Below are positions 9 to 57,693 of a stretch of 64,000 nt of DNA, one piece after another (the stretch's first letter is position 1; every line of letters begins with the position of its first letter). The notes below the pieces were generated by a model. The model saw nothing but the letters and a program-made list of their open reading frames with translations. It searched no databases and was not told where the DNA came from. Source of the stretch: Alphaproteobacteria bacterium (GTDB taxonomy: Bacteria > Pseudomonadota > Alphaproteobacteria > RF32 > CAG-239); NCBI GenBank assembly GCA_015062585.1, contig SUUJ01000003.1, forward strand, positions 101,774 through 165,773, written 5' to 3'. Position numbers and translations under genes: made by a program.

Positions 9-141
9 ACAAAAAAACTCGGAGAATAGTACAGATAGAGCGATTTCTAGGAGAGACAAAAATTTTAGCGTACAAATAGCTACGTGAATTTTTGGCTACT
101 CCGTAAAATCGCTCTAGATGTGCTGTTATACGAGTTTTTTA
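9..141 (+). repeat. Copy 1 of a ~130-bp intergenic repeat family resembling Rickettsia palindromic elements (RPE-like); its 3' end coincides with the hydA stop codon
   Basis: Aligns with copies at 12926-13058 and 19242-19366 through the blocks aaaaa(a/t)(c/t)cgga(g/t)aat(a/g)ag ... aaaaatttt(a/g)ag ... gtacaaa ... gtac(a/g)tgaattttt ... gctctaga ... tta(t/g)acga(a/g)ttttt. Contains an internal 11-bp perfect inverted repeat: tagagcgattt at 36-46 pairs with aaatcgctcta at 106-116. Confidence 0.6.
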
Positions 142-1923
142 TTTGTAGACATCACGCTGACGATACTTAGTATGCAGCAATTCGTGGGATTTATGACCAC
201 CTGCTTCACCAAGAAATTCGTCATATAACTTCTTGATTGATTCGTTGTGATGTGACAAACGATTCTTAGCTTGAGTATCTTCGGTGTTCAAACCTTTTGA
301 ACGAAGTTTTCTGACCTCGTCGGTAATACCCCAAGGTTTTTCCATATGTTGCATCATAACTTTTGGCTGACCGCCACCGGAAATACATCCGCCGGGGCAA
401 GCCATAACTTCGATAAAGTGATATGGAAGTTCTTCACCTGCTTCTTGAGCGGCTCTGATATTATCCATAACTTCTTCAACATTGCCTACACCATTAACCA
501 CAGCAATACGAACCTTTGTACCGTTGATATCAACTTCGGCAACTTTTACAGCTTCCAAACCTTCGATAGCCTCAAAGTTTAGCTGACCGAGTTCTTTTCC
601 GGTAATATAGAAGTATGCTGTACGCAAAGCAGCTGTCATCACACCGCCTGTAACACCAAAGATTGTAGCGGCACCGGAATATTCGCCCAAAGGACTATCG
701 GCAGGCTCATCTTTCAATGCCTTAAAGTTAATGCCGGCTTGACGAATCATTTTGGCCAATTCACGAGTAGTCAAAACAACATCAACATCTTGATAGCCTG
801 ATGATGACATGGTTTCATGGCGTCTTACTTCCCATTTTTTGGCGGTACAAGGCATAATAGATACAACTTTTACCTTAGACGCATCCAAGCCCATTTTTTG
901 TGCATAGTAAGTTTTTGCCAAAGCACCGACCATTTGGTGAGGTGACTTACAAGATGACAAGTTCGGCAGGTTTTCAGGATAATATTTTTCAATATAATCA
1001 ACCCATGCCGGACAGCAAGATGTAAACATCGGCAAATTGTCATTATTGGTAAAGCGTTTCACAAATTCAGAAGCTTCTTCAATAATTGTCAAATCAGCTC
1101 CAAAGTTTGTATCAAACACTTTGTTAAAGCCAAGTCTTCTCAAAGCGGCATAGATTTTTTCGGTCAAGTTTGCGCCAAACTCATAACCAAACTCTTCACC
1201 CAAAGCCACTCTTACAGCCGGAGCAATTTGAACAACGGTAACGGTTTCGGGATTTTTAATCATATCCCAAACTTTTTGTGTTTCGTCATATTCAACAATT
1301 GCACCTGTCGGACAGTGAACAGCACATTGACCGCATTTGATACATGGGCTGTCGGCAAGTTTGGTATCGTTAGCACCGGTGATTTTAGTTGCCAAACCAC
1401 GATTTAAATAACTCAATGCCCAAACATTTTGTTCATTTTGGCAGATATCGACACAACGACCGCAAACAATACATTTTGACGGATCCAAAACAATCGATTG
1501 TGTAGAATCATCCAACTCGTCATCTTCAACGATTTTTTGAATCTCGTCGCGATCAACACCCATATGCATTGCCATATCTTGCAATTCACATTGACCGCTT
1601 CTGGCACATTTCAAACAATCATTAGGGTGATTACTCAAAATAAGTTCCAACACGGTTTTTCTGGTTTCGAACAATTCATCATCATTGGTAATAACTTCCA
1701 TACCTTCGCCAACCGGAGTACAGCAAGAACGGATAATGCGACCGTTAACCTTAACAATACACATACCGCAACCTGCTGATGGGTCAACATCAGGGTGTTT
1801 ACACAATGTCGGAATATTTATCTGAACCTTGCGAGCAGCCTCCAAAATACTGGTACCGGCTTCAACTTCAACTTCCATATTATCAATTTTAAGCTTAACC
1901 ATATTATTTCTCCTCTGCATCAA
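139..1923 (-). CDS. hydA: [FeFe]-hydrogenase catalytic subunit (HydA/HndD-like, M3-type). N-terminal 2Fe-2S ferredoxin-like domain, a His-ligated 4Fe-4S site, two 4Fe-4S ferredoxin motifs and the H-cluster domain.
   Basis: H-cluster signature motifs are present: FTSCCPAWV (L1, TSCCP), MPCTAKKWE (L2, MPCxxK) and EVMACPGGCISGGGQP (L3, ExMxCxxGCxxGG). Also CIVCGRCVDIC and CIKCGQCAVHCP (2x 4Fe-4S), HPNDCLKCARSGQC, and an N-terminal CGMC 2Fe-2S motif. 594 aa. Confidence 0.9.
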   Translation of the reverse strand: MMQRRNNMVKLKIDNMEVEVEAGTSILEAARKVQINIPTLCKHPDVDPSAGCGMCIVKVNGRIIRSCCTPVGEGMEVITNDDELFETRKTVLELILSNHPNDCLKCARSGQCELQDMAMHMGVDRDEIQKIVEDDELDDSTQSIVLDPSKCIVCGRCVDICQNEQNVWALSYLNRGLATKITGANDTKLADSPCIKCGQCAVHCPTGAIVEYDETQKVWDMIKNPETVTVVQIAPAVRVALGEEFGYEFGANLTEKIYAALRRLGFNKVFDTNFGADLTIIEEASEFVKRFTNNDNLPMFTSCCPAWVDYIEKYYPENLPNLSSCKSPHQMVGALAKTYYAQKMGLDASKVKVVSIMPCTAKKWEVRRHETMSSSGYQDVDVVLTTRELAKMIRQAGINFKALKDEPADSPLGEYSGAATIFGVTGGVMTAALRTAYFYITGKELGQLNFEAIEGLEAVKVAEVDINGTKVRIAVVNGVGNVEEVMDNIRAAQEAGEELPYHFIEVMACPGGCISGGGQPKVMMQHMEKPWGITDEVRKLRSKGLNTEDTQAKNRLSHHNESIKKLYDEFLGEAGGHKSHELLHTKYRQRDVYK

Positions 1924-9384: not shown

Positions 9385-9598
9385 AAAAATAAACACACCT
9401 AAAGTCATAGCCTATTTTTTTAACAAAATATAAAAGTCATCCCTGTTTTGTGAGCGATGAGCGAGCAAAATTCAAGGTATCTTCTTTTTTAAAAATTGCC
9501 AAAAACTAAACTTCGACTCGAATAAAATAATATTCTTAACTTTCTCGCACCCTTAAAAAAATCTGATTTTATCATTGTTTTTCAATTAGTTATCGAGC

Positions 9599-9628
9599 TT
9601 GACGGGGGGGGGTAAAACATGGTATAAT
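9599..9628 (+). promoter_or_regulatory. Putative sigma-70 promoter: TTGACG -35, 18-bp spacer, extended -10 TGgTATAAT
   Basis: ttgacg at 9599-9604 and tataat at 9623-9628, with tg at 9619-9620. Sits in a 400-bp intergenic region about 160 bp upstream of the ORF at 9789. Confidence 0.45.
9604..9612. repeat. G9 homopolymeric tract inside the putative promoter spacer
   Basis: Nine consecutive G residues in a ~30% GC genome, directly following the -35 hexamer. Confidence 0.8.
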
Positions 9629-9788: not shown

Positions 9789-10091
9789 ATGTCACAATTA
9801 TTTTTAGCTATTGTAGCTATCGCAAACATTATTTGCTTTGCTTATGCAGTAATCTACGGAGTGAAATTCATTTTCATCAAAAGAAAGCCTAACTTCGACA
9901 AAGACTTCTGGAATGAGAACAAAAAGTATGTTAAAGAGAATTTTAAAGAGTGTTTTAAGATGACACTTGGAGAATTTAAATGGTTTCAAAAACTGGGACT
10001 TTGTCTAGTAGTAGTGATAGCTCCTATATCTGTTCTGGCATTGCTCTTTTCAATTCTATCGGATATGGCTTCAGATTGCTGCGACGACTAA
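9789..10091 (+). CDS. Hypothetical small membrane protein (two predicted TM helices, C-terminal DCCDD)
   Basis: 100-aa ORF with a hydrophobic N-terminus and a hydrophobic central segment, followed by a strong terminator. No recognisable family. Confidence 0.5.
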   Translation: MSQLFLAIVAIANIICFAYAVIYGVKFIFIKRKPNFDKDFWNENKKYVKENFKECFKMTLGEFKWFQKLGLCLVVVIAPISVLALLFSILSDMASDCCDD

Positions 10092-10097
10092 ACAAAA

Positions 10098-10133
10098 CAG
10101 GAAGTGCAAATTGCACTTCCTGCTCTTTATTTT
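10098..10133 (+). terminator. Rho-independent terminator, probably bidirectional, between the small ORF and gpsA
   Basis: Perfect 11-bp stem caggaagtgca/tgcacttcctg with loop aat, then ctctttatttt. Confidence 0.75.
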
Positions 10134-10151: not shown

Positions 10152-11120
10152 TTAAGAAAATTCGCGTTTCAACGACCTTTCAAACAACTTAGTAATAATT
10201 TCTTTAATGTTACCTTTCTCATATATTGCCTGATATAAAGCTTGTGAGATAGGCATATCGATTCCATGTTCATCAGCCAACAGTTTAACCGCTTTTAGTG
10301 TCGGAACACCTTCGGCCAATTTACCAAAATCTTCACCACGAGCAAATTTTTCGCCAAACATACGATTGTGACTGTTCTTCGAGAATAAAGTTGCTTCATA
10401 ATCGCCCAAATGTGAAAGTCCGTAAGCCGTCATCGGATTGCCGCCGAAAAATTTAATCAAACGACCGACTTCGACCGGAGCTCTGGCCATCAAAGCGCCT
10501 TTCAAACCGTACCACTCCAAACCATCCAAAATTCCGGCTGCCAAACCGATAACATTTTTCATGGCAGCGCCGATTTGATTACCGATTAAATCTTCGCCAT
10601 AGTAAAGTCTTATAAGTTGGCTTTGCATAATATTGATGACATATTCTTTTGTGTCTTCCTCATCACTATCGACGACTGCCGCCGACGGAACGCCGCGCAT
10701 ATAGTCTTGAACATGACCCGGACCGCCAAGAGTTGCAATATGGATATTTTGACTTATTTCTTCACGCATAATTTCAAGCATACGCTTACCTGACGGTTCT
10801 TCCAACCCCTTCATAGCCAACAAAAATGTTTTACCCTCTAAATCATATGCACTCAGCTCTTTGCACAAACCTCTGAAATATTGGCAACCGATAGATACGA
10901 TAATAAAATCATTTTTCAAAATTGCCGGAATATTATCAAAAAGTTCCATATTATCGCTAAGCGACAAATAAGGATTTTTGCGAGTATTTTTCAACTCGAT
11001 AAAATTTGGAGATGTCGGGATATCATACATATCAACGCCGTCACATTTTCCGTAATTGGCAACATACCAACCCAAAAATGTACCCCAGCGCCCGCAACCG
11101 ATTAAAGAAATTCTAGTCAT
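10152..11120 (-). CDS. gpsA: NAD(P)H-dependent glycerol-3-phosphate dehydrogenase
   Basis: N-terminal ISLIGCGRWGT Rossmann motif; LAEGVPTLKAV motif. 322 aa. Confidence 0.9.
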   Translation of the reverse strand: MTRISLIGCGRWGTFLGWYVANYGKCDGVDMYDIPTSPNFIELKNTRKNPYLSLSDNMELFDNIPAILKNDFIIVSIGCQYFRGLCKELSAYDLEGKTFLLAMKGLEEPSGKRMLEIMREEISQNIHIATLGGPGHVQDYMRGVPSAAVVDSDEEDTKEYVINIMQSQLIRLYYGEDLIGNQIGAAMKNVIGLAAGILDGLEWYGLKGALMARAPVEVGRLIKFFGGNPMTAYGLSHLGDYEATLFSKNSHNRMFGEKFARGEDFGKLAEGVPTLKAVKLLADEHGIDMPISQALYQAIYEKGNIKEIITKLFERSLKREFS

Positions 11121-11591: not shown

Positions 11592-11792
11592 TTTTCAAAG
11601 CAATCCATAGTTCTTGAATATTTTTTTAGTATCACACTAAAAAATAAAAAGCAAGTTTTTTTCCCAACCTTACAAGGTCTATATTATTATATTTAGTTTA
11701 AGCAAAAGTTAATTGCAACCATATAATAAAAAATATAAAAAACTTGTTGCAAAATAATATATATTTTATTAAGTTTATGAACGAAAGATTAA

Positions 11793-11883
11793 GGATAGAT
11801 GGCCGAGTGGTCGAAGGCGCACGATTGGAAATCGTGTATACCTCCAAAGGGTATCCAGGGTTCGAATCCCTGTCTATCCGCCA
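11793..11883 (+). tRNA. tRNA-Ser (anticodon GGA)
   Basis: Folded by eye. Acceptor GGATAGA/TCTATCC, D-arm GCCGAGTGGTCGAAGGC, anticodon stem CACGA/TCGTG with loop TTGGAAA, long variable arm, T-arm CAGGGTTCGAATCCCTG, discriminator G, encoded CCA. Confidence 0.85.
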
Positions 11884-11896
11884 TTTACAAACAACA

Positions 11897-11919
11897 GCAC
11901 CCTTGCGGTGCTTTTTTTT
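11897..11919 (+). terminator. Rho-independent terminator after tRNA-Ser
   Basis: gcacc-cttgc-ggtgc hairpin followed by T8. Confidence 0.7.
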
Positions 11920-11924
11920 GTAAA

Positions 11925-12052
11925 TACGAGGATTGCCGGATGAGAACCCTGGAGAAAGTGGTTCGAAAACAAGGTTCAGGCAGACGGAAGTATGCCGGTG
12001 AGCAAAGCGAAGAACCGCTGTTTCGGCAGAGCCAATCTCACTCTATCCGCCA
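11925..12052 (+). other. GC-rich (~50% GC) ~128-nt island ending in an 11-nt copy of the tRNA-Ser 3' end (tctatccgcca). Possible att-site remnant or a small structured RNA.
   Basis: Exact 11-mer shared between tRNA-Ser (11873-11883) and 12042-12052. The segment is bounded by terminators on both sides and its composition contrasts strongly with the surroundings. Confidence 0.4.
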
Positions 12053-12061
12053 ATAAAAAAG

Positions 12062-12089
12062 CAACACCCGAAGCGGTGTTGTTTTTTTT
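12062..12089 (+). terminator. Rho-independent terminator closing the GC-rich island
   Basis: caacacc-cgaagc-ggtgttg hairpin followed by T8. Confidence 0.7.
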
Positions 12090-12240
12090 ATTTAATTGTG
12101 ATAGGTCTAGTTTTGAGCCGGTACAAAGCGGCGATAAAACTTCTATACAAAACAAGTGACCGAAGCGAAGTTGTTGAGCATTTTTACAATGCGAAACCTA
12201 CGAAGCAAGAATGGGATTCGAAGAAGACCATCACCCGCAT

Positions 12241-12266
12241 AAAAAAAACTCCCCTAAAAAGGAGAG
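12241..12266 (-). terminator. Rho-independent terminator of tRNA-Gly
   Basis: On the minus strand: CTCTCC-TTTTTA-GGGGAG hairpin followed by U8. Confidence 0.6.
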
Positions 12267-12273
12267 TTAGAAT

Positions 12274-12348
12274 TGGAGCGGGTGATGGGATTCGAACCCA
12301 CGACATCAACCTTGGCAAGGTTGCGCTCTACCCCTGAGCTACGCCCGC
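12274..12348 (-). tRNA. tRNA-Gly (anticodon GCC)
   Basis: Reverse complement reads GCGGGCGTAGCTCAGGGGTAGAGCGCAACCTTGCCAAGGTTGATGTCGTGGGTTCGAATCCCATCACCCGCTCCA. Anticodon loop TTGCCAA; canonical T-loop. Confidence 0.85.
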
Positions 12349-12407: not shown

Positions 12408-12884
12408 TTATAATTCTTCCACCTGCAAAACCTTTTCAACATCACTAACCTCATTTGCCATCTGCAAAACGGTGTCAAAATCAATCGTTTCTATTGATAA
12501 CAAACCCAAACACAACATTACGATTGACAACAACCTTAACATCCATATCACACTTCTGCTGCCGCGAAACAAACGCCCCTCTTTATCTCTGTTTTGAAAC
12601 AAAAGTTCTACTTCTGCCCACATTGATGTAAAAATAAGCGGAAAGAACAGCATAAAAGGAGCAGAAAGACTGAGCAAAAACTGTACAACCCCTCTTATCC
12701 AAAATCTTGCGTAAAAGTTATGAACACCGATAGCGCCGAGTGTAAAAGCCAACACAATATAGACAGTGCCATTTACCGAAGACTCTTCCTTATCGCGCAA
12801 AATCTTACGAAAGGCCATTTTTTTTCGTTGTTCGGAAATAGATAGATTTTTTACTCTTTTTTTTGTCACGTTCTTATCTTTCAA
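12408..12884 (-). CDS. TM2-domain membrane protein
   Basis: LAFTLGAIGVHNFYARFWIRGVVQFL matches the TM2 domain signature (GxxGxHxFY). 158 aa. Confidence 0.55.
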   Translation of the reverse strand: MKDKNVTKKRVKNLSISEQRKKMAFRKILRDKEESSVNGTVYIVLAFTLGAIGVHNFYARFWIRGVVQFLLSLSAPFMLFFPLIFTSMWAEVELLFQNRDKEGRLFRGSRSVIWMLRLLSIVMLCLGLLSIETIDFDTVLQMANEVSDVEKVLQVEEL

Positions 12885-12925
12885 AAATCTGCATTAGAAA
12901 TCCTTTAGACACTTCCTTAGCTCCC

Positions 12926-13058
12926 AAAAAATTCGGATAATGAGATTTATAGAGTTATTTTCAAAGCGAGAAAAATTTTGAGTAGTACAAAGAAGTACAT
13001 GAATTTTTCGAGATGAAAGAAAATGGCTCTAGAAATCCTTTAGACGAATTTTTCTATT
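12926..13058 (+). repeat. Copy 2 of the RPE-like repeat; it overlaps the last 9 codons and the stop codon of smpB
   Basis: Aligned by eye with the copies at 9-141 and 19242-19366. Internal helix tagagttatttt/aaaatggctcta forms with G-U pairs. The 15-mer agaaatcctttagac is additionally duplicated at 12897-12911. Confidence 0.6.
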
Positions 13059-13505
13059 AAGTTCACGCTCTTTTATACTATCCCTCTTATCATAAAGTTT
13101 TTTACCCTTACCTAAACCGACCTCTAATTTCGCGCGTCCGTTAGTATCAAAAAACAGTCTCATTGCCACCAAAGTTGTGCCCTTGCGAGATAACGAATTG
13201 ATAATATCGATTATCTCCTTTTTTTTCAAAAGAAGCTTGCGCTCACGCTTTTCCGAATGCGAAACATAACCTTTATAAGTATATTCGGCAATATACATAT
13301 TAGATACATATAATTCACCGTTTTTTTCAACCCCAAACGCGTCATTGATATTAGCATGACCAAGGCGCAAAGATTTAACTTCGGTTCCCAAAAGTTCTAA
13401 ACCGGCAACATATTTTTCCTCTATCAGATAATCAAAATTTGCACGGCGATTTTGTGCCACCAAGCCCTTTGATATAAATTCCGATTTATGTTTTTCTTTA
13501 GCCAT
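13029..13505 (-). CDS. smpB: SsrA-binding protein SmpB
   Basis: AQNRRANFDYLIEEKYVAGLELLGTEVKSLR is a typical SmpB core. 158 aa. The C-terminal tail NRKIRLKDF is encoded inside repeat copy 2. Confidence 0.9.
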   Translation of the reverse strand: MAKEKHKSEFISKGLVAQNRRANFDYLIEEKYVAGLELLGTEVKSLRLGHANINDAFGVEKNGELYVSNMYIAEYTYKGYVSHSEKRERKLLLKKKEIIDIINSLSRKGTTLVAMRLFFDTNGRAKLEVGLGKGKKLYDKRDSIKERELNRKIRLKDF

Positions 13506-19169: not shown

Positions 19170-19241
19170 TTTATTACCTTTTTTTATTAAAAAAGCGGCT
19201 AAAGTAATTTTTACTCCAACCGCTTATACCTTTTCACTCAT

Positions 19242-19366
19242 AAAAATCCGGATAATGAGGTAAATAATAAGAAATAAGAAATTTTGTGAGCGAGCGTACA
19301 AAGAAGTACGTGACCGAACAAAATGTTCGCAATTTCTGTATTAGTTACCCATTAGACGAGTTTTTA
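19242..19366 (+). repeat. Copy 3 of the RPE-like repeat; its 3' end coincides with the rplY stop codon
   Basis: Shares with the other two copies ccggataatgag ... ttttgtgagcgagcgtacaaagaagtacgtga ... attagacgagttttta. Confidence 0.6.
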
Positions 19367-19648
19367 TTTTCTGACGAAATCTACGTGAATAGCCTTATCA
19401 GAAACCGGGTGGAATTGAACATCTTTGCAAACAACTGCAATTTTTTTACCGTCCAAAACAACTTCGATATCCATATCGTAAAAACCTCTGGTATCCAAAG
19501 CTTTTTCCAATTCAACCGGGTGCAATGAAATCATTACAGGTTCTTGTTTTCCACCATAAATAACTGCAGGAACGCGACCCTCACGACGACATGCACGAGC
19601 TGCCCCCTTACCTGCTTTTTCTCTTTTTTCAGCATTAAATGTAATCAT
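19364..19648 (-). CDS. rplY: 50S ribosomal protein L25 (short form)
   Basis: 94 aa. RVPAVIYG motif. Conserved rplY-pth-ychF neighbourhood. Confidence 0.8.
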   Translation of the reverse strand: MITFNAEKREKAGKGAARACRREGRVPAVIYGGKQEPVMISLHPVELEKALDTRGFYDMDIEVVLDGKKIAVVCKDVQFHPVSDKAIHVDFVRK

Positions 19649-22358: not shown

Positions 22359-22381
22359 AAAAAACTCTTTATTTCAAAAAA

Positions 22382-22474
22382 CTGGTGGAGAGAAATCGAC
22401 CTTGGTTAATCTCGTTACGGCTGCTTCCTTCCGGACCTGACCGGATTGGCGAAACACCAACCCGTTCCCCTCCA
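22382..22474 (-). ncRNA. ffs: Signal recognition particle RNA (4.5S/ffs, small bacterial type)
   Basis: The reverse complement contains GGUCAGGUCCGGAAGGAAGCAGCC, the conserved domain IV motif (E. coli 4.5S: AGGUCAGGUCCGGAAGGAAGCAGCC). The terminal helix UGGAGGGG.../...CUCUCCACC closes the molecule. Lies upstream of dnaX as in many bacteria. Confidence 0.8.
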
Positions 22475-22523
22475 AAAACATACTTAGCAAAAAGCCGGTT
22501 GTTTTTCAAGTTTAATTTTTTTA

Positions 22524-26136: not shown

Positions 26137-28566
26137 CTAATCTTTAGCTGCCGGTTCAATTCTCATAGCGTAGAAAGAACGCCATACAAATATCAAACCG
26201 AGTACAAAGAAGCCTATTCCAAGTCCCAATGCCACACATTTTGGAGCGGCGACGGCCATTTCAACAGCCAACAATCCAAATAATGTGGTAAACTTAATAA
26301 TCGGGTTTAATGCAACTGATGATGTATCTTTATAAGGATCACCAACAGTATCGCCTACAACTGACGCATCATGTAAAGCTGTACCTTTTTCACCCAAATC
26401 AACTTCAACAACCTTTTTAGCGTTGTCCCAAGCGCCACCGGCATTAGCCATGTACAAAGCTTGGAAAAGACCAAATACGGCTATTGAAATCAAATAGCTG
26501 GCAAACAAACTTGCATCAAAGCACGCAAAAGCAATTGTAAATGAGAAAATTACAATAAATATGTTAAACATACCTTTTTGCGCATATACGGTACAAATTT
26601 GTACAACTTTCTTAGAATCTTCAATCGAAGCAGCTTTTGCTGTATTAAGCTTGATGTGTTTCTTAATATAGTTCACTGCACGATATGCACCTGTCGAAAC
26701 AGCCTGCATTGAAGCACCCGAGAACCAAAAGATAACGGCACCACCAAGGATAATACCGAACAACACCATCGGATCCAAAAGGTTAAGTTGCAAGTTCAAT
26801 AACAAGATTATTGAGAAAATCATGGTTGTCGCACCGATAACAGCAGTTCCGATTAGCACCGGTTTTGCAGTTGCCTTAAAGGTATTACCGGCAGAGTCAT
26901 TTTCTTCCAAAAAGTGCTTACCGCCTTCAAAATCAGGTTTAAATCCATAAGTTTTCTCGATTTCTTTATCGATTCCCTTAATACTTTCGATTTGTGATAA
27001 TTCAAATACTGATTGAGCATTGTCGGTAACCGGACCATAAGAGTCAACGGCAATAGTAACAGGGCCCATACCAAGCATACCGAATGCCACCAAACCAAAA
27101 GCAAAAATTGTCGGATAAACCATAAAAGCATCCAAACCGCTTCTGGCAGTAAAGAAAGCCACAGCCATAAGACCGACCATAACCAATCCTTGCCAAAAAG
27201 CAGAGAAGTTGCCGGCAACAATACCGGAAATAATGTTCAATGAAGCACCGGCCTCACGCGAAGCATTAACAACTTCTTCAACATGTTTAGATTTTGATGA
27301 TGTAAAGATTTTGGTAAATTCCGGTATCAAAGCAGCTGCCATCGTACCGCAAGAAATAATGACCGAAAGTTTCCACCACAAATCCGGCGACATTTCACCA
27401 ATCATAACATAAGAAACACCGAAGGTTACGGCAATTGAAACAACTGCTGTCAACCAAATCAAACTGGTCAACGGAGTTTCAAAGTTAAATGCTTTTTTAT
27501 TTCCATACAAAGCCTTGGCGACACCACTGTTAATCCAATAAGAAACAATAGATGTCAAAACCATCAGCAAGCGCATTGCAAAAATCCAAACAATCAAGCG
27601 AGCTTGGATATCGATTCCATTGTTAAGCATTACCAAATCACCGTTTTTAGCCCACATCATACCGGCACCCAAAACGATAAATGAAATCAAAGCAACACCT
27701 GTAACACCATATGTTTCAAAACCATCGGCAGTAGGGCCAACGCTATCACCGGCATTATCACCGGTACAATCGGCAATCACACCTGGGTTTCTTGCATCAT
27801 CTTCATCAATTTTGAATATAATTTTCATCAAGTCTGCACCGATATCCGCGATTTTGGTAAAAATACCACCGCAAATACGCAATGCCGAAGCACCCAATGA
27901 TTCACCTATTGCAAAACCGATAAAACAAGCACCCGCGTTTTCTTTATCAACAAACAAAAGTATTGAAATCATCATAACAAGTTCAACACAAATAAGTAAA
28001 ACGCCGATAGACATTCCCGAACGCAAAGGCAAACTCATCACCGGAAAAGGTTTTCCCTTCAATGACAAGAAAGCCGTACGCGAGTTTGCATAGGTGTTAA
28101 TTCTCATACCAAACCATGCTACCGCATATGAACCCAAAATTCCCAATACTGACCACGCCAAAACTGTCATTACTTTCGGTAACGGAGTTGCATTTAAGTA
28201 ATAGAAATAATAGAAAATACACACGGCAATAAATACTTCTAACACTATCAACAATTTTGCCTGCTGTTTCATATATGTTTTGCAAGTTTCGTAAATAGTG
28301 TGCGAAACATTTAACATAGCCTTATGCGCCGGCAATTTTTTGATTCCGAAAAATTCACCCAAGCCGAACAACAATCCGACTAAGCACACACCCAATCCGT
28401 ACAACAAAATTTGCGATCCGGTAAGCGAAAGCCCAAAAATGTTATAAGCAACATCAAGTGATGGAATTTTCAAATCAATTTCCGAAGCTAAGGCATTTGA
28501 ACCAAAAGACAGCAAAGCTATCAAAGTCCAAAAAGTTACATCCTTAATTTTTCTAAAATTTATCAT
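26137..28566 (-). CDS. hppA: Membrane-bound proton- or sodium-translocating pyrophosphatase (V-PPase)
   Basis: DNAGDSVGPTADGFETYG and DTVGDPYKDTSSVALNPIIK match conserved V-PPase motifs (GDTIGDPxKDTSGP). 809-aa polytopic membrane protein. Confidence 0.85.
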   Translation of the reverse strand: MINFRKIKDVTFWTLIALLSFGSNALASEIDLKIPSLDVAYNIFGLSLTGSQILLYGLGVCLVGLLFGLGEFFGIKKLPAHKAMLNVSHTIYETCKTYMKQQAKLLIVLEVFIAVCIFYYFYYLNATPLPKVMTVLAWSVLGILGSYAVAWFGMRINTYANSRTAFLSLKGKPFPVMSLPLRSGMSIGVLLICVELVMMISILLFVDKENAGACFIGFAIGESLGASALRICGGIFTKIADIGADLMKIIFKIDEDDARNPGVIADCTGDNAGDSVGPTADGFETYGVTGVALISFIVLGAGMMWAKNGDLVMLNNGIDIQARLIVWIFAMRLLMVLTSIVSYWINSGVAKALYGNKKAFNFETPLTSLIWLTAVVSIAVTFGVSYVMIGEMSPDLWWKLSVIISCGTMAAALIPEFTKIFTSSKSKHVEEVVNASREAGASLNIISGIVAGNFSAFWQGLVMVGLMAVAFFTARSGLDAFMVYPTIFAFGLVAFGMLGMGPVTIAVDSYGPVTDNAQSVFELSQIESIKGIDKEIEKTYGFKPDFEGGKHFLEENDSAGNTFKATAKPVLIGTAVIGATTMIFSIILLLNLQLNLLDPMVLFGIILGGAVIFWFSGASMQAVSTGAYRAVNYIKKHIKLNTAKAASIEDSKKVVQICTVYAQKGMFNIFIVIFSFTIAFACFDASLFASYLISIAVFGLFQALYMANAGGAWDNAKKVVEVDLGEKGTALHDASVVGDTVGDPYKDTSSVALNPIIKFTTLFGLLAVEMAVAAPKCVALGLGIGFFVLGLIFVWRSFYAMRIEPAAKD

Positions 28567-57616: not shown

Positions 57617-57693
57617 GTACCCGTAGCTCAACCGGATAGAGTATCAGCCTCCGACGCTGAAGGTTGAGGGTTCGACTCCCTCCGGGTACGCCA
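57617..57693 (+). tRNA. tRNA-Arg (anticodon CCG)
   Basis: Acceptor GTACCCG/CGGGTAC; anticodon stem TCAGC/GCTGA with loop CTCCGAC; T-arm GAGGGTTCGACTCCCTC; discriminator G plus CCA. Confidence 0.8.

Follow-up and report, generated by a model that had tools for sequence, protein, structure and literature searches.

Why three genes of an alphaproteobacterial genome should end in the same repeat of about 125 nt is the question raised by a stretch of 64,000 nucleotides from Alphaproteobacteria bacterium (GTDB lineage RF32; CAG-239), positions 101,774 to 165,773 of contig SUUJ01000003.1 (assembly GCA_015062585.1), which is called the window below and has a G+C content of 36.6%. An earlier note, made from the sequence alone, had recognized three same-strand copies at the 3' ends of hydA, smpB and rplY, and had likened them to the Rickettsia palindromic elements (RPEs) that insert into protein-coding genes or, alternatively, to 3' untranslated region (3' UTR) modules that terminate transcription or stabilize mRNA. 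The copies belong to a family of long, covarying hairpins (the units) that are fused to stop codons in one orientation and are either strongly conserved or exchanged at orthologous sites; the family appears to be undescribed and restricted to a lineage of uncultured gut and rumen Alphaproteobacteria. The copies and the genes that they adjoin are as follows.

9..141, plus strand: copy 1, subtype A, about 126 nt, a single hairpin with basal stem AAAAAAACTCG/CGAGTTTTTT
139..1923, minus strand: hydA, Fe-only hydrogenase, 594 amino acids, Pfam Fe_hyd_lg_C and Fe_hyd_SSU, complete to residue 590
12924..13058, plus strand: copy 2, subtype A, about 126 nt, apex GTAC-AAAGAA-GTAC at 12985-12998
13029..13505, minus strand: smpB, 158 amino acids, Pfam SmpB, stop codon TAG at 13029-13031, within copy 2
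19239..19367, plus strand: copy 3, subtype B, about 123 nt, apex GTAC-AAAGAA-GTAC at 19296-19309
19364..19648, minus strand: rplY, ribosomal protein L25, 94 amino acids, Pfam Ribosomal_L25p (4e-27)
9436..9462, plus strand: a possible fourth fragment in the earlier note, unsupported as a family member

A family of full-length hairpins

The placing of the three copies on one strand was borne out by a nucleotide profile and by a covariance model. In BLAST comparisons, copies 1 and 2 are 70.4% identical over 135 nt (E 1e-7), and copy 3 has both ends and the central block in common with them; a profile of the three copies (nhmmer) matches just those three in the 64 kb, with E values of 1e-31 to 1e-40. 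The same profile also matches copy 1 to its own reverse complement (72.7% over 132 nt), and the element is therefore one long imperfect palindrome. Each copy folds along its full length into one hairpin (about 125 nt), the z-scores relative to dinucleotide shuffles being -9.4, -4.8 and -6.4 for copies 1, 2 and 3 (copy 1: -61.1 kcal/mol, z -9.35). The 11-bp inverted repeat that the earlier note had singled out in copy 1 (36-46/106-116) is exact, but it is merely part of the hairpin spanning the whole element, and the two G-U pairs of the same helix in copy 2 (tagagTTatttt / aaaatGGctcta) are real. In copy 1 a purine-mismatch box (GGAGAA/TTATAC) adjoins the basal stem, and the apex reads AG-CGTAC-AAATAG-CTACG-TGA at 67-87. 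With a covariance model trained on 73 copies from other genomes, copies 1, 2 and 3 score 102, 91.5 and 111 bits on the plus strand and only 26-51 bits on the minus strand; with filters off, the model finds just these three copies in the window. A fourth candidate, at 26503-26605, was rejected (22 bits with filters off, inside an open reading frame (ORF) of 809 codons, no hairpin), and the fragment at 9436-9462 proved to be a 12-nt exact match (E 1.1) that the model does not recover even with filters off and E up to 10.

Further units were sought with the pattern AAAAWYYCGGAKAA-N80-110-TTAKACGARTTTT in one genome per species of 185,579 species, a pattern that demands both ends, so that the conservation of the ends and of their A and T runs is partly built in. 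It returned 87 stretches, about 72 of them in metagenome-assembled genomes (MAGs) of rumen, colon and human gut origin whose titles read uncultured Alphaproteobacteria, Rhodospirillales or 'Azospirillum sp.'; a single MAG has as many as seven. Fourteen matches in Lysinibacillus, which represent one orthologous coding locus without a hairpin, and a coding, non-hairpin match in Schaalia were set aside as chance. A 2.8-kb contig of a MAG titled Lactobacillus sp. (JAISFX010000040.1, locus L072), which has a unit and a gene that is orthologous and 78% identical to alphaproteobacterial loci, is probably mis-binned; it also carries two mini-hairpin derivatives (AAAACTCGGATAATGAGGCCATTATA...), which indicate that units undergo internal deletion. 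Applied to fetched, element-centred loci of 8 kb that total about 0.6 Mb, the covariance model (73 distinct copies) found 113 units at 93 sites, counts that come from related sequences and are not numbers of independent events. Scores are 60-132 bits on the sense strand and 28-53 bits on the reverse strand, a gap that makes the orientation of a unit unambiguous, and the units found by the model only include compensated end variants such as GTTTG...CAAAC. From the window and from second sites, copy density is estimated at about one per 20-30 kb, the MAGs being incomplete.

The comparison with Rfam that the earlier note had proposed brought no family to light: Rfam 15 at gathering thresholds finds only tRNAs and the signal recognition particle (SRP) RNA in the whole window, none at the units, and at E values up to 1 it finds nothing at the units of three tandem-unit loci, and a known RNA family was accordingly rejected. 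No copy was found in 2.9 million viral contigs, which speaks against a phage origin; a plasmid origin was likewise rejected, although plasmids were not searched. No relevant earlier description of the hairpin family was found in the literature.

Units are 122-131 nt long, with a short form of 104-112 nt, and each is a single imperfect hairpin. As read on the plus strand of the window, a run of five to eight A's precedes the basal stem YTCG...CGAR and a run of four to nine T's follows it; the basal stem is a CTCG/CGAG clamp, and the whole has the layout of a bidirectional terminator, in which a clamped stem is followed by a U-run and faced by an A-run. The unit ends AAAAAYTCGGAKAAT and ATTAKACGARTTTTT, which the search pattern required, are imperfect terminal inverted repeats. 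Next to the basal stem lies a conserved box, GGAKAA opposite TTAKAC, which places G.A mismatches around one A-U pair; beyond it come two or three helices in which sequence is free and pairing is kept, and then the apex, AG-YGTAC-(5-7 nt)-GTACR-TGA or its GTAG...CTAC form, with a G.U pair that is retained in 86 of 91 distinct units. Three subtypes have only the ends and the apex in common: A (copies 1 and 2), B (copy 3), which carries ATAATAAGA...CTGTATTAG, and C, the short form. Their middle helices are unrelated in sequence and always paired.

Compensatory change, from which the earlier note had suggested selection on RNA structure on the strength of one helix, is abundant in the model alignment. 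Standard pairs fill 97.1% of its cells, as compared with 77.8% after column shuffles (none of 500 came up to the alignment itself) and 33-47% with partners shifted by one to three columns, and double-sided changes occur at 25 of 30 pairs, covering 533 cells. Fitting the alignment to the model favours pairing, but the excess over the controls is very large, and single sequences fold in agreement with it.

Fusion to stop codons at probable ends of transcription units

As the earlier note had it, each window copy abuts a minus-strand gene, and the identities of hydA, smpB and rplY were confirmed by Pfam. The stop codon of hydA (TAA, 139-141) is the TTA that closes the T-run of copy 1, and that of rplY is the TTA at 19364-19366 fused to copy 3. 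The end of smpB lies 24-27 nt inside copy 2, the right arm of which (13032-13055) is also the last eight codons of smpB.

This arrangement is general. Of 79 copies defined by the pattern, 73 have on their 3' side a gene that is antisense to the unit and whose stop codon lies at the T-run (binomial p 1e-15). At 47 of 68 sites where an ORF could be called, only A's separate the stop codon from YTCG, giving TAA-AAA(A)-CTCGTATAA in the sense of the gene, in which a fused unit reads TAA-AAAACTCGTATAA...; at nine sites the ORF ends at the element's own in-frame TAA, 13 nt in; three sites have an overlap of the smpB type, and at the remaining nine the unit lies 9-54 nt downstream of the stop codon. 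Where the ORF ends inside it, the unit adds at most four codons, and no in-frame insertion within an ORF was found among the 93 sites, each of which coincides with a stop codon or lies immediately beyond one. In the window, 2-75 nt separate conventional terminator-like hairpins from their stop codons, so zero spacing is not just a habit of the genome. The stop codons at units are TAA in 64 of 74 cases, as against 67% of 389 background genes (p 8e-4), and never TGA (0/74 versus 13%, p 1.5e-4). The base before the A-run is mostly T, even where there is no stop codon, which suggests that the end of the unit is effectively TAAAAA-YTCG, overlapping or supplying the stop codon. The flanks of 79 copies contain no direct repeats of the kind expected of target-site duplications. 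At 17 of the 93 sites two or three units stand head to tail, often with truncated units alongside.

The abutting genes are core housekeeping genes, among them ftsH (in nine genomes), lepA, yebC, the gene of an ABC-F ATPase, ackA, htpG, gatB, rplA, rsfS and lpxA, with hydA, smpB and rplY as the members of this set in the window, and no transposase or integrase gene was found among 76 neighbouring genes. Unit sites look like the ends of transcription units. Convergent contexts make up 52% of them, as compared with 35% for other genes (p 0.013), and in co-directional pairs the spacer, after subtraction of the unit, has a median of 198 nt versus 17 nt elsewhere (p 6e-10). Four of 88 arrays have a conventional terminator-like hairpin within the next 120 nt; the corresponding figures are 47 of 360 for background genes (p 0.024) and 11 of 486 for random chunks. 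These tests, made with heuristic ORF calls and a strict hairpin finder, are supportive, not decisive.

Conservation and replacement at orthologous sites

Orthologous sites are bimodal: the unit either has changed far less than the 240 nt of coding sequence beside it, or has been swapped. Conserved units show identities of 93-100% next to coding flanks at 70-89% (100% versus 82% in L019/L092; 100% versus 86% in L022/L093; 93% versus 70-73% for the ftsH units of L019/L092 compared with L094/L028/L070), and swapped units are 56-80% identical where the flanks are 88-95% identical (76% versus 95% in L073/L095; 65% versus 89% and 56% versus 88% in others). At the same time, units 94-100% identical to each other stand at unrelated genes, in the same or in different genomes; copy 1, for example, is 100% identical to the unit behind a non-orthologous ABC-F gene in the MAG JAZUCK (L021).

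Units also stand at hydA, smpB and rplY in the closest relatives (L076, L004/L061 and L031, respectively), with different interiors. The hydA orthologue of L076 has a unit of different interior at the same stop codon, and in L031 the rplY flank is 85% identical, the element is 80% identical and its middle stem has been re-paired. Units also come and go. In the window, gpsA (10152..11120, minus strand) has no unit and is followed by an ordinary bidirectional terminator hairpin at 10095-10125 (CAGGAAGTGCA...TGCACTTCCTG), whereas in the MAG JAFVWM the same stop codon of the orthologue is joined to a degenerate unit (L061, 4431-4568). A unit present in L055 is absent from L020, the difference being bounded by a 4-nt ATTT repeat, and L100 has one gene-proximal unit more than L032 (two versus one).

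In L021 (1300-1420), the unit identical to copy 1 is followed by half a subtype-B unit, its 3' half, which begins precisely with the GTAC of the apex, then by the 5' stub of a third unit and last by an ordinary terminator; the GTAC apex, where such breakpoints fall, may be a favoured point of recombination.

The simplest account is that strong selection on the fold, almost all bases of which are paired, makes units change very slowly, and that occasional overwriting by other units through gene conversion, together with tandem duplication and deletion, does the rest.

The smpB locus illustrates how a gene can take part in such a unit. Beyond copy 2 lies one further piece of the family.

12884..12910, plus strand: right-arm remnant of an earlier unit (subtype B), pushed out past copy 2

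More than 100 homologues retain the SmpB tail (...DRKIRLKDF), and the element-free orthologues L101 and L102, which have just 45 nt to the next gene, encode the same tail with AGAAAAATTCGTCTGAAGGATTTTTAG; the more distant, element-free L106 has a homologous smpB 3' end, AGAAAGATGCGTTTAGCTGG. The window codons beneath copy 2 (KIRLKDF) are thus native to smpB as judged from these homologues, and a C-terminus donated by the element was rejected for the window. The native codons resemble the end of a unit (AAAAAYTCGTMTAA) and act as its gene-proximal arm, with which the distal arm pairs. Donation does hold for L105, in which the native SmpB tail has been lost and replaced by an element-encoded KKLV followed by a stop codon, and the locus is accordingly known in three states: empty, overlapping by 24 nt, and overlapping by 13 nt with the tail replaced. 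The likeness to RPEs drawn by the earlier note therefore stands in part: the ORF ends inside the unit at 12 of 68 sites and the SmpB tail of L105 is encoded by the element, but the smpB codons of the window are native and no internal in-frame insertion was seen.

The 16-mer at 12895-12910 is identical to 13030-13045 at the 3' end of smpB (16/16). A target-site duplication was considered for this repeat and rejected: past its 16 nt, the distal copy extends into an older unit's arm (the remnant at 12884..12910, which runs on as ...AATCTGCATTAG and matches the unit of L004), and the relatives L004, L061 and L105 have matching remnants or tandem units downstream of smpB. The outer arms of copy 2 are also present in L004 and L061, the interior of which is of subtype B.

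Two further observations concern the surroundings of smpB. In L104, an element-free relative, the 340-nt G+C-rich intergenic region at 2480-2820 has long inverted repeats of its own (GTCATTCTGAGG...CCTCAGAATGAC), which are a different repeat family. Beyond the TM2 gene and the tRNA downstream of smpB, a stretch that varies among close relatives (L004 4376-5878; L003 4403-5488; window about 11600-12300) contains a gene for a phage-type integrase of 500 amino acids in one relative and an extra gene for a periplasmic binding protein in another, and looks like a tRNA-associated integration spot for islands.

Function, spread and relation to known systems

On balance, and with moderate confidence, we favour the reading that the unit is a palindromic repeat of the ERIC/REP kind that now serves as a bidirectional terminator and mRNA 3'-end cap where transcription units of housekeeping genes end, kept by selection on its hairpin and renewed by copying between units. 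The unit would be transcribed as the start of the 3' UTR; starting as it does at the stop codon, it must be transcribed at least partly on the gene-sense strand, and the opposite strand would be transcribed only at convergent sites. The hairpin of about 55 bp, followed by five to eight U's, would stop RNA polymerase arriving from either side, and would cap the mRNA against 3' exonucleases. New units would be copied from other units and existing ones overwritten likewise, through gene conversion, tandem duplication and deletion, with joints in short homologies between the TAAAAA(YTCG) end of the unit and the stop region of the gene; joints of this kind would explain both the fusion to TAA and the lack of target duplications. 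The analysis shows that the units form a family, that they are covarying hairpins of fixed position and orientation, that they are conserved or replaced, and in what context they stand; transcription, termination or stabilization, and the mechanism of copying are what we infer, termination and stabilization from the design of the hairpin and from its context. The terminator or stabilizer module that the earlier note offered as its alternative is the better fit, in view of the A and T runs, the position at transcription-unit ends, the scarcity of ordinary terminators and the conservation at orthologous sites.

Several points weigh against this reading. Termination can do with a far shorter stem than one of about 55 bp, and a symmetric terminator works either way round, so that function alone leaves the locked orientation unexplained. 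In 70 of 73 units the better fold is that of the strand antisense to the gene (means of -48.1 versus -40.9 kcal/mol), and it is this strand that is purine-rich at the G.A boxes (366 G.A versus 2 C.U cells) and has the conserved G.U pair, which hints at recognition of it by a protein. The tests of depletion and enrichment are modest (p 0.01-0.02) and used heuristic ORF calls, and the search pattern inflates the apparent conservation of the ends. Copy 3, exceptionally, has an ordinary terminator behind it:

19193..19225, minus strand: conventional intrinsic-terminator-like hairpin, 17 nt beyond copy 3, before pth

The strand bias rests on three or four conserved positions only; sporadic wobble changes have none (36 G.U versus 23 A.C, or 20 versus 22 when one column is left out).

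On another reading, the unit would be a non-autonomous mobile element, whose hairpin is read as single-stranded DNA by an HUH/Y1 transposase of the IS200/IS605-RAYT type or by a tyrosine recombinase, as attC is, and which inserts strand-specifically at a short target (T/TAA and an A-run), any function for the host being secondary. We consider this unlikely. In its favour are the locked orientation, the fusion to TAA, the lack of target-site duplications and of TGA stop codons, the conserved mismatches and wobble that mark one strand like the extrahelical bases of attC or the imperfect hairpins of IS608 and REP, the head-to-tail tandems, the identical units at unrelated genes, the breakpoints at the GTAC apex (L021) and the GTTAGAC in the 3' box of some units, which fits the attC R' consensus GTTRRRY. 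The 5' box GGAKAAY, on the other hand, does not fit RYYYAAC; the neighbours are core housekeeping genes in conserved synteny, not cassettes, with no integrase beside the arrays, and integron cassettes were rejected on the ground of these core genes. A nearby HUH transposase or RAYT was not found either: tblastn with IS200 TnpA and RAYT gave no match with E <0.05 in the approximately 0.6 Mb of loci, a weak test in that the queries were approximate and the sample small. In a search of the same element-centred loci for an insertion sequence (IS) with matching ends, all solo unit ends belonged to truncated units inside arrays. Moreover, units that remain 93-100% identical at orthologous sites, with flanks at 70-89%, fit a resident structure under selection better than a recent insertion, and both at smpB and in L055 the strand of the basal stem that lies nearer the gene is part of the gene's native sequence.

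A speculative extension, to which we also give little credence, is a hairpin element that targets stop codons: a dedicated protein would recognize the G.A boxes, the G.U pair and the GTAC apex of one particular strand, be it RNA or single-stranded DNA, and would place or copy units at the T of housekeeping TAA stop codons in one orientation and without target duplication. If this were true, the long conservation at orthologous sites would reflect an obligatory interaction of protein and hairpin, not plain termination.

It is also possible, if doubtful, that the strand antisense to the gene makes a structured RNA that binds a protein, for instance as an insulator against convergent or antisense transcription at the gene border, or as a processing site. 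That strand is the one that folds better in the 70 of 73 units and carries the tandem G.A boxes and the near-invariant G.U pair; at about half of the sites there is a convergent gene that would transcribe it, and its T-run ends exactly at the stop codon of the gene to be protected. In co-directional contexts (28 of 58), however, there is no obvious transcription of this strand, the stop codon of the convergent gene is 10-950 nt away, sporadic wobble changes are not biased toward the strand, no Rfam family matches, and the difference in stability amounts to few independent observations, coming from three or four conserved features.

That the three segments are local duplications or chance likenesses of AT-rich terminators, as their number in the window might suggest, has almost no probability and is refuted by more than 100 units in dozens of genomes, by covariation far above the controls and by the recurrence of the same apex and mismatch boxes throughout; the earlier note had named the absence of further copies and of covariation as its refutation, and further copies and covariation were both found.

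Apart from the units, the window has its best sigma-70-like site of the first 20 kb at 9599-9628 (plus strand; TTGACG-18 nt-TATAAT), upstream of an ORF at 9789..10091. The spacer contains a run of nine G's (9604-9612), and to judge by its sequence the site could be a slipped-strand, phase-variable promoter. Matches to Rfam at gathering thresholds are the following.

22381-22476, minus strand: bacterial small SRP RNA
11793-11880, plus strand: tRNA
12277-12348, minus strand: tRNA
57617-57690, plus strand: tRNA

Palindromic intergenic repeats such as REP, ERIC, RPE and Correia elements are known in a few well-studied groups, and the origin, spread and purpose of several of them are debated. The family described here is an unusually clean natural data set from an uncultured gut and rumen lineage, with more than 100 units, locked orientation, fusion to stop codons, variants frozen or swapped whole at orthologous sites and native coding sequence recruited as a hairpin arm. 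It makes two questions testable with the metagenomes and metatranscriptomes that already exist: whether such repeats are kept by selection on the fold of RNA or DNA, and whether they spread by transposition or by conversion. In practice, the units are a marker of the lineage and can confuse gene callers and assemblers at the 3' ends of genes.

Among the known systems, the attC sites of integrons (the 123-126-bp repeats of Vibrio cholerae) resemble the units in length and in being imperfect palindromes that directly adjoin or overlap the stop codon of the ORF before them; their orientation is likewise fixed, and one strand is marked by non-paired bases, the informative strand being antisense to the ORF. 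They differ in belonging to arrays of promoterless cassettes, whereas the units adjoin core housekeeping genes in conserved synteny with no IntI gene beside the arrays; of the attC boxes (RYYYAAC...GTTRRRY), the 3' box of the unit (GTTAGAC, GTTATAC or ATTATAC) fits in part and the 5' box (GGAKAAY) does not. Correia elements (CREE/NEMIS) and other miniature inverted-repeat transposable elements (MITEs; RUP, BOX, Nezha) are likewise short, non-coding and multi-copy, with imperfect terminal inverted repeats, and are co-transcribed with their neighbours, their hairpins terminating transcription or being processed. Unlike the units, Correia elements have a TA target duplication and an IS-like ancestor; the units have no target duplication, and no IS with matching ends was found in the loci. 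Pairing of the interior is not required of MITEs, whereas the units covary over their whole length.

RPEs are alphaproteobacterial palindromic repeats of 100-150 bp that occur in many copies, overlap coding sequence and donate residues, and the units approach them at the nine sites that end at the internal TAA and in the SmpB of L105, which ends in KKLV. RPEs, however, are inserted in frame inside ORFs and in RNA genes, and the units touch only the extreme C-terminus or the stop codon. REPs and BIMEs are extragenic palindromes at the 3' ends of genes, often clustered, that affect the stability of mRNA 3' ends and termination; many REPs reportedly lie within 15 nt of stop codons. A REP is 20-40 nt long with a GT[AG]G foot, in contrast to about 125 nt for a unit, BIMEs alternate in orientation where units stand head to tail, and the hallmark of REPs, a RAYT gene flanked by them, was not found here in the weak tblastn test.

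Close parallels also exist with ERIC sequences (enterobacterial repetitive intergenic consensus, or IRUs). The host lineage is different, and the units, which have no Rfam match, are probably unrelated to them in sequence. ERIC sequences occur in both orientations and at variable distances from genes, whereas 92% of units have one orientation and most are fused to a stop codon, and the A and T runs at the ends, the head-to-tail tandems and the swaps of whole interiors are features of the unit family. In both, however, the whole element is a hairpin, an imperfect palindrome of about 127 bp in ERIC and of about 125 nt in the units, which lies in extragenic DNA beside gene ends, is transcribed (presumably so in the units), numbers tens to hundreds of copies, and has no coding capacity and no known transposase. 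ERIC copies at orthologous sites are also unusually well conserved, as are the units described here.

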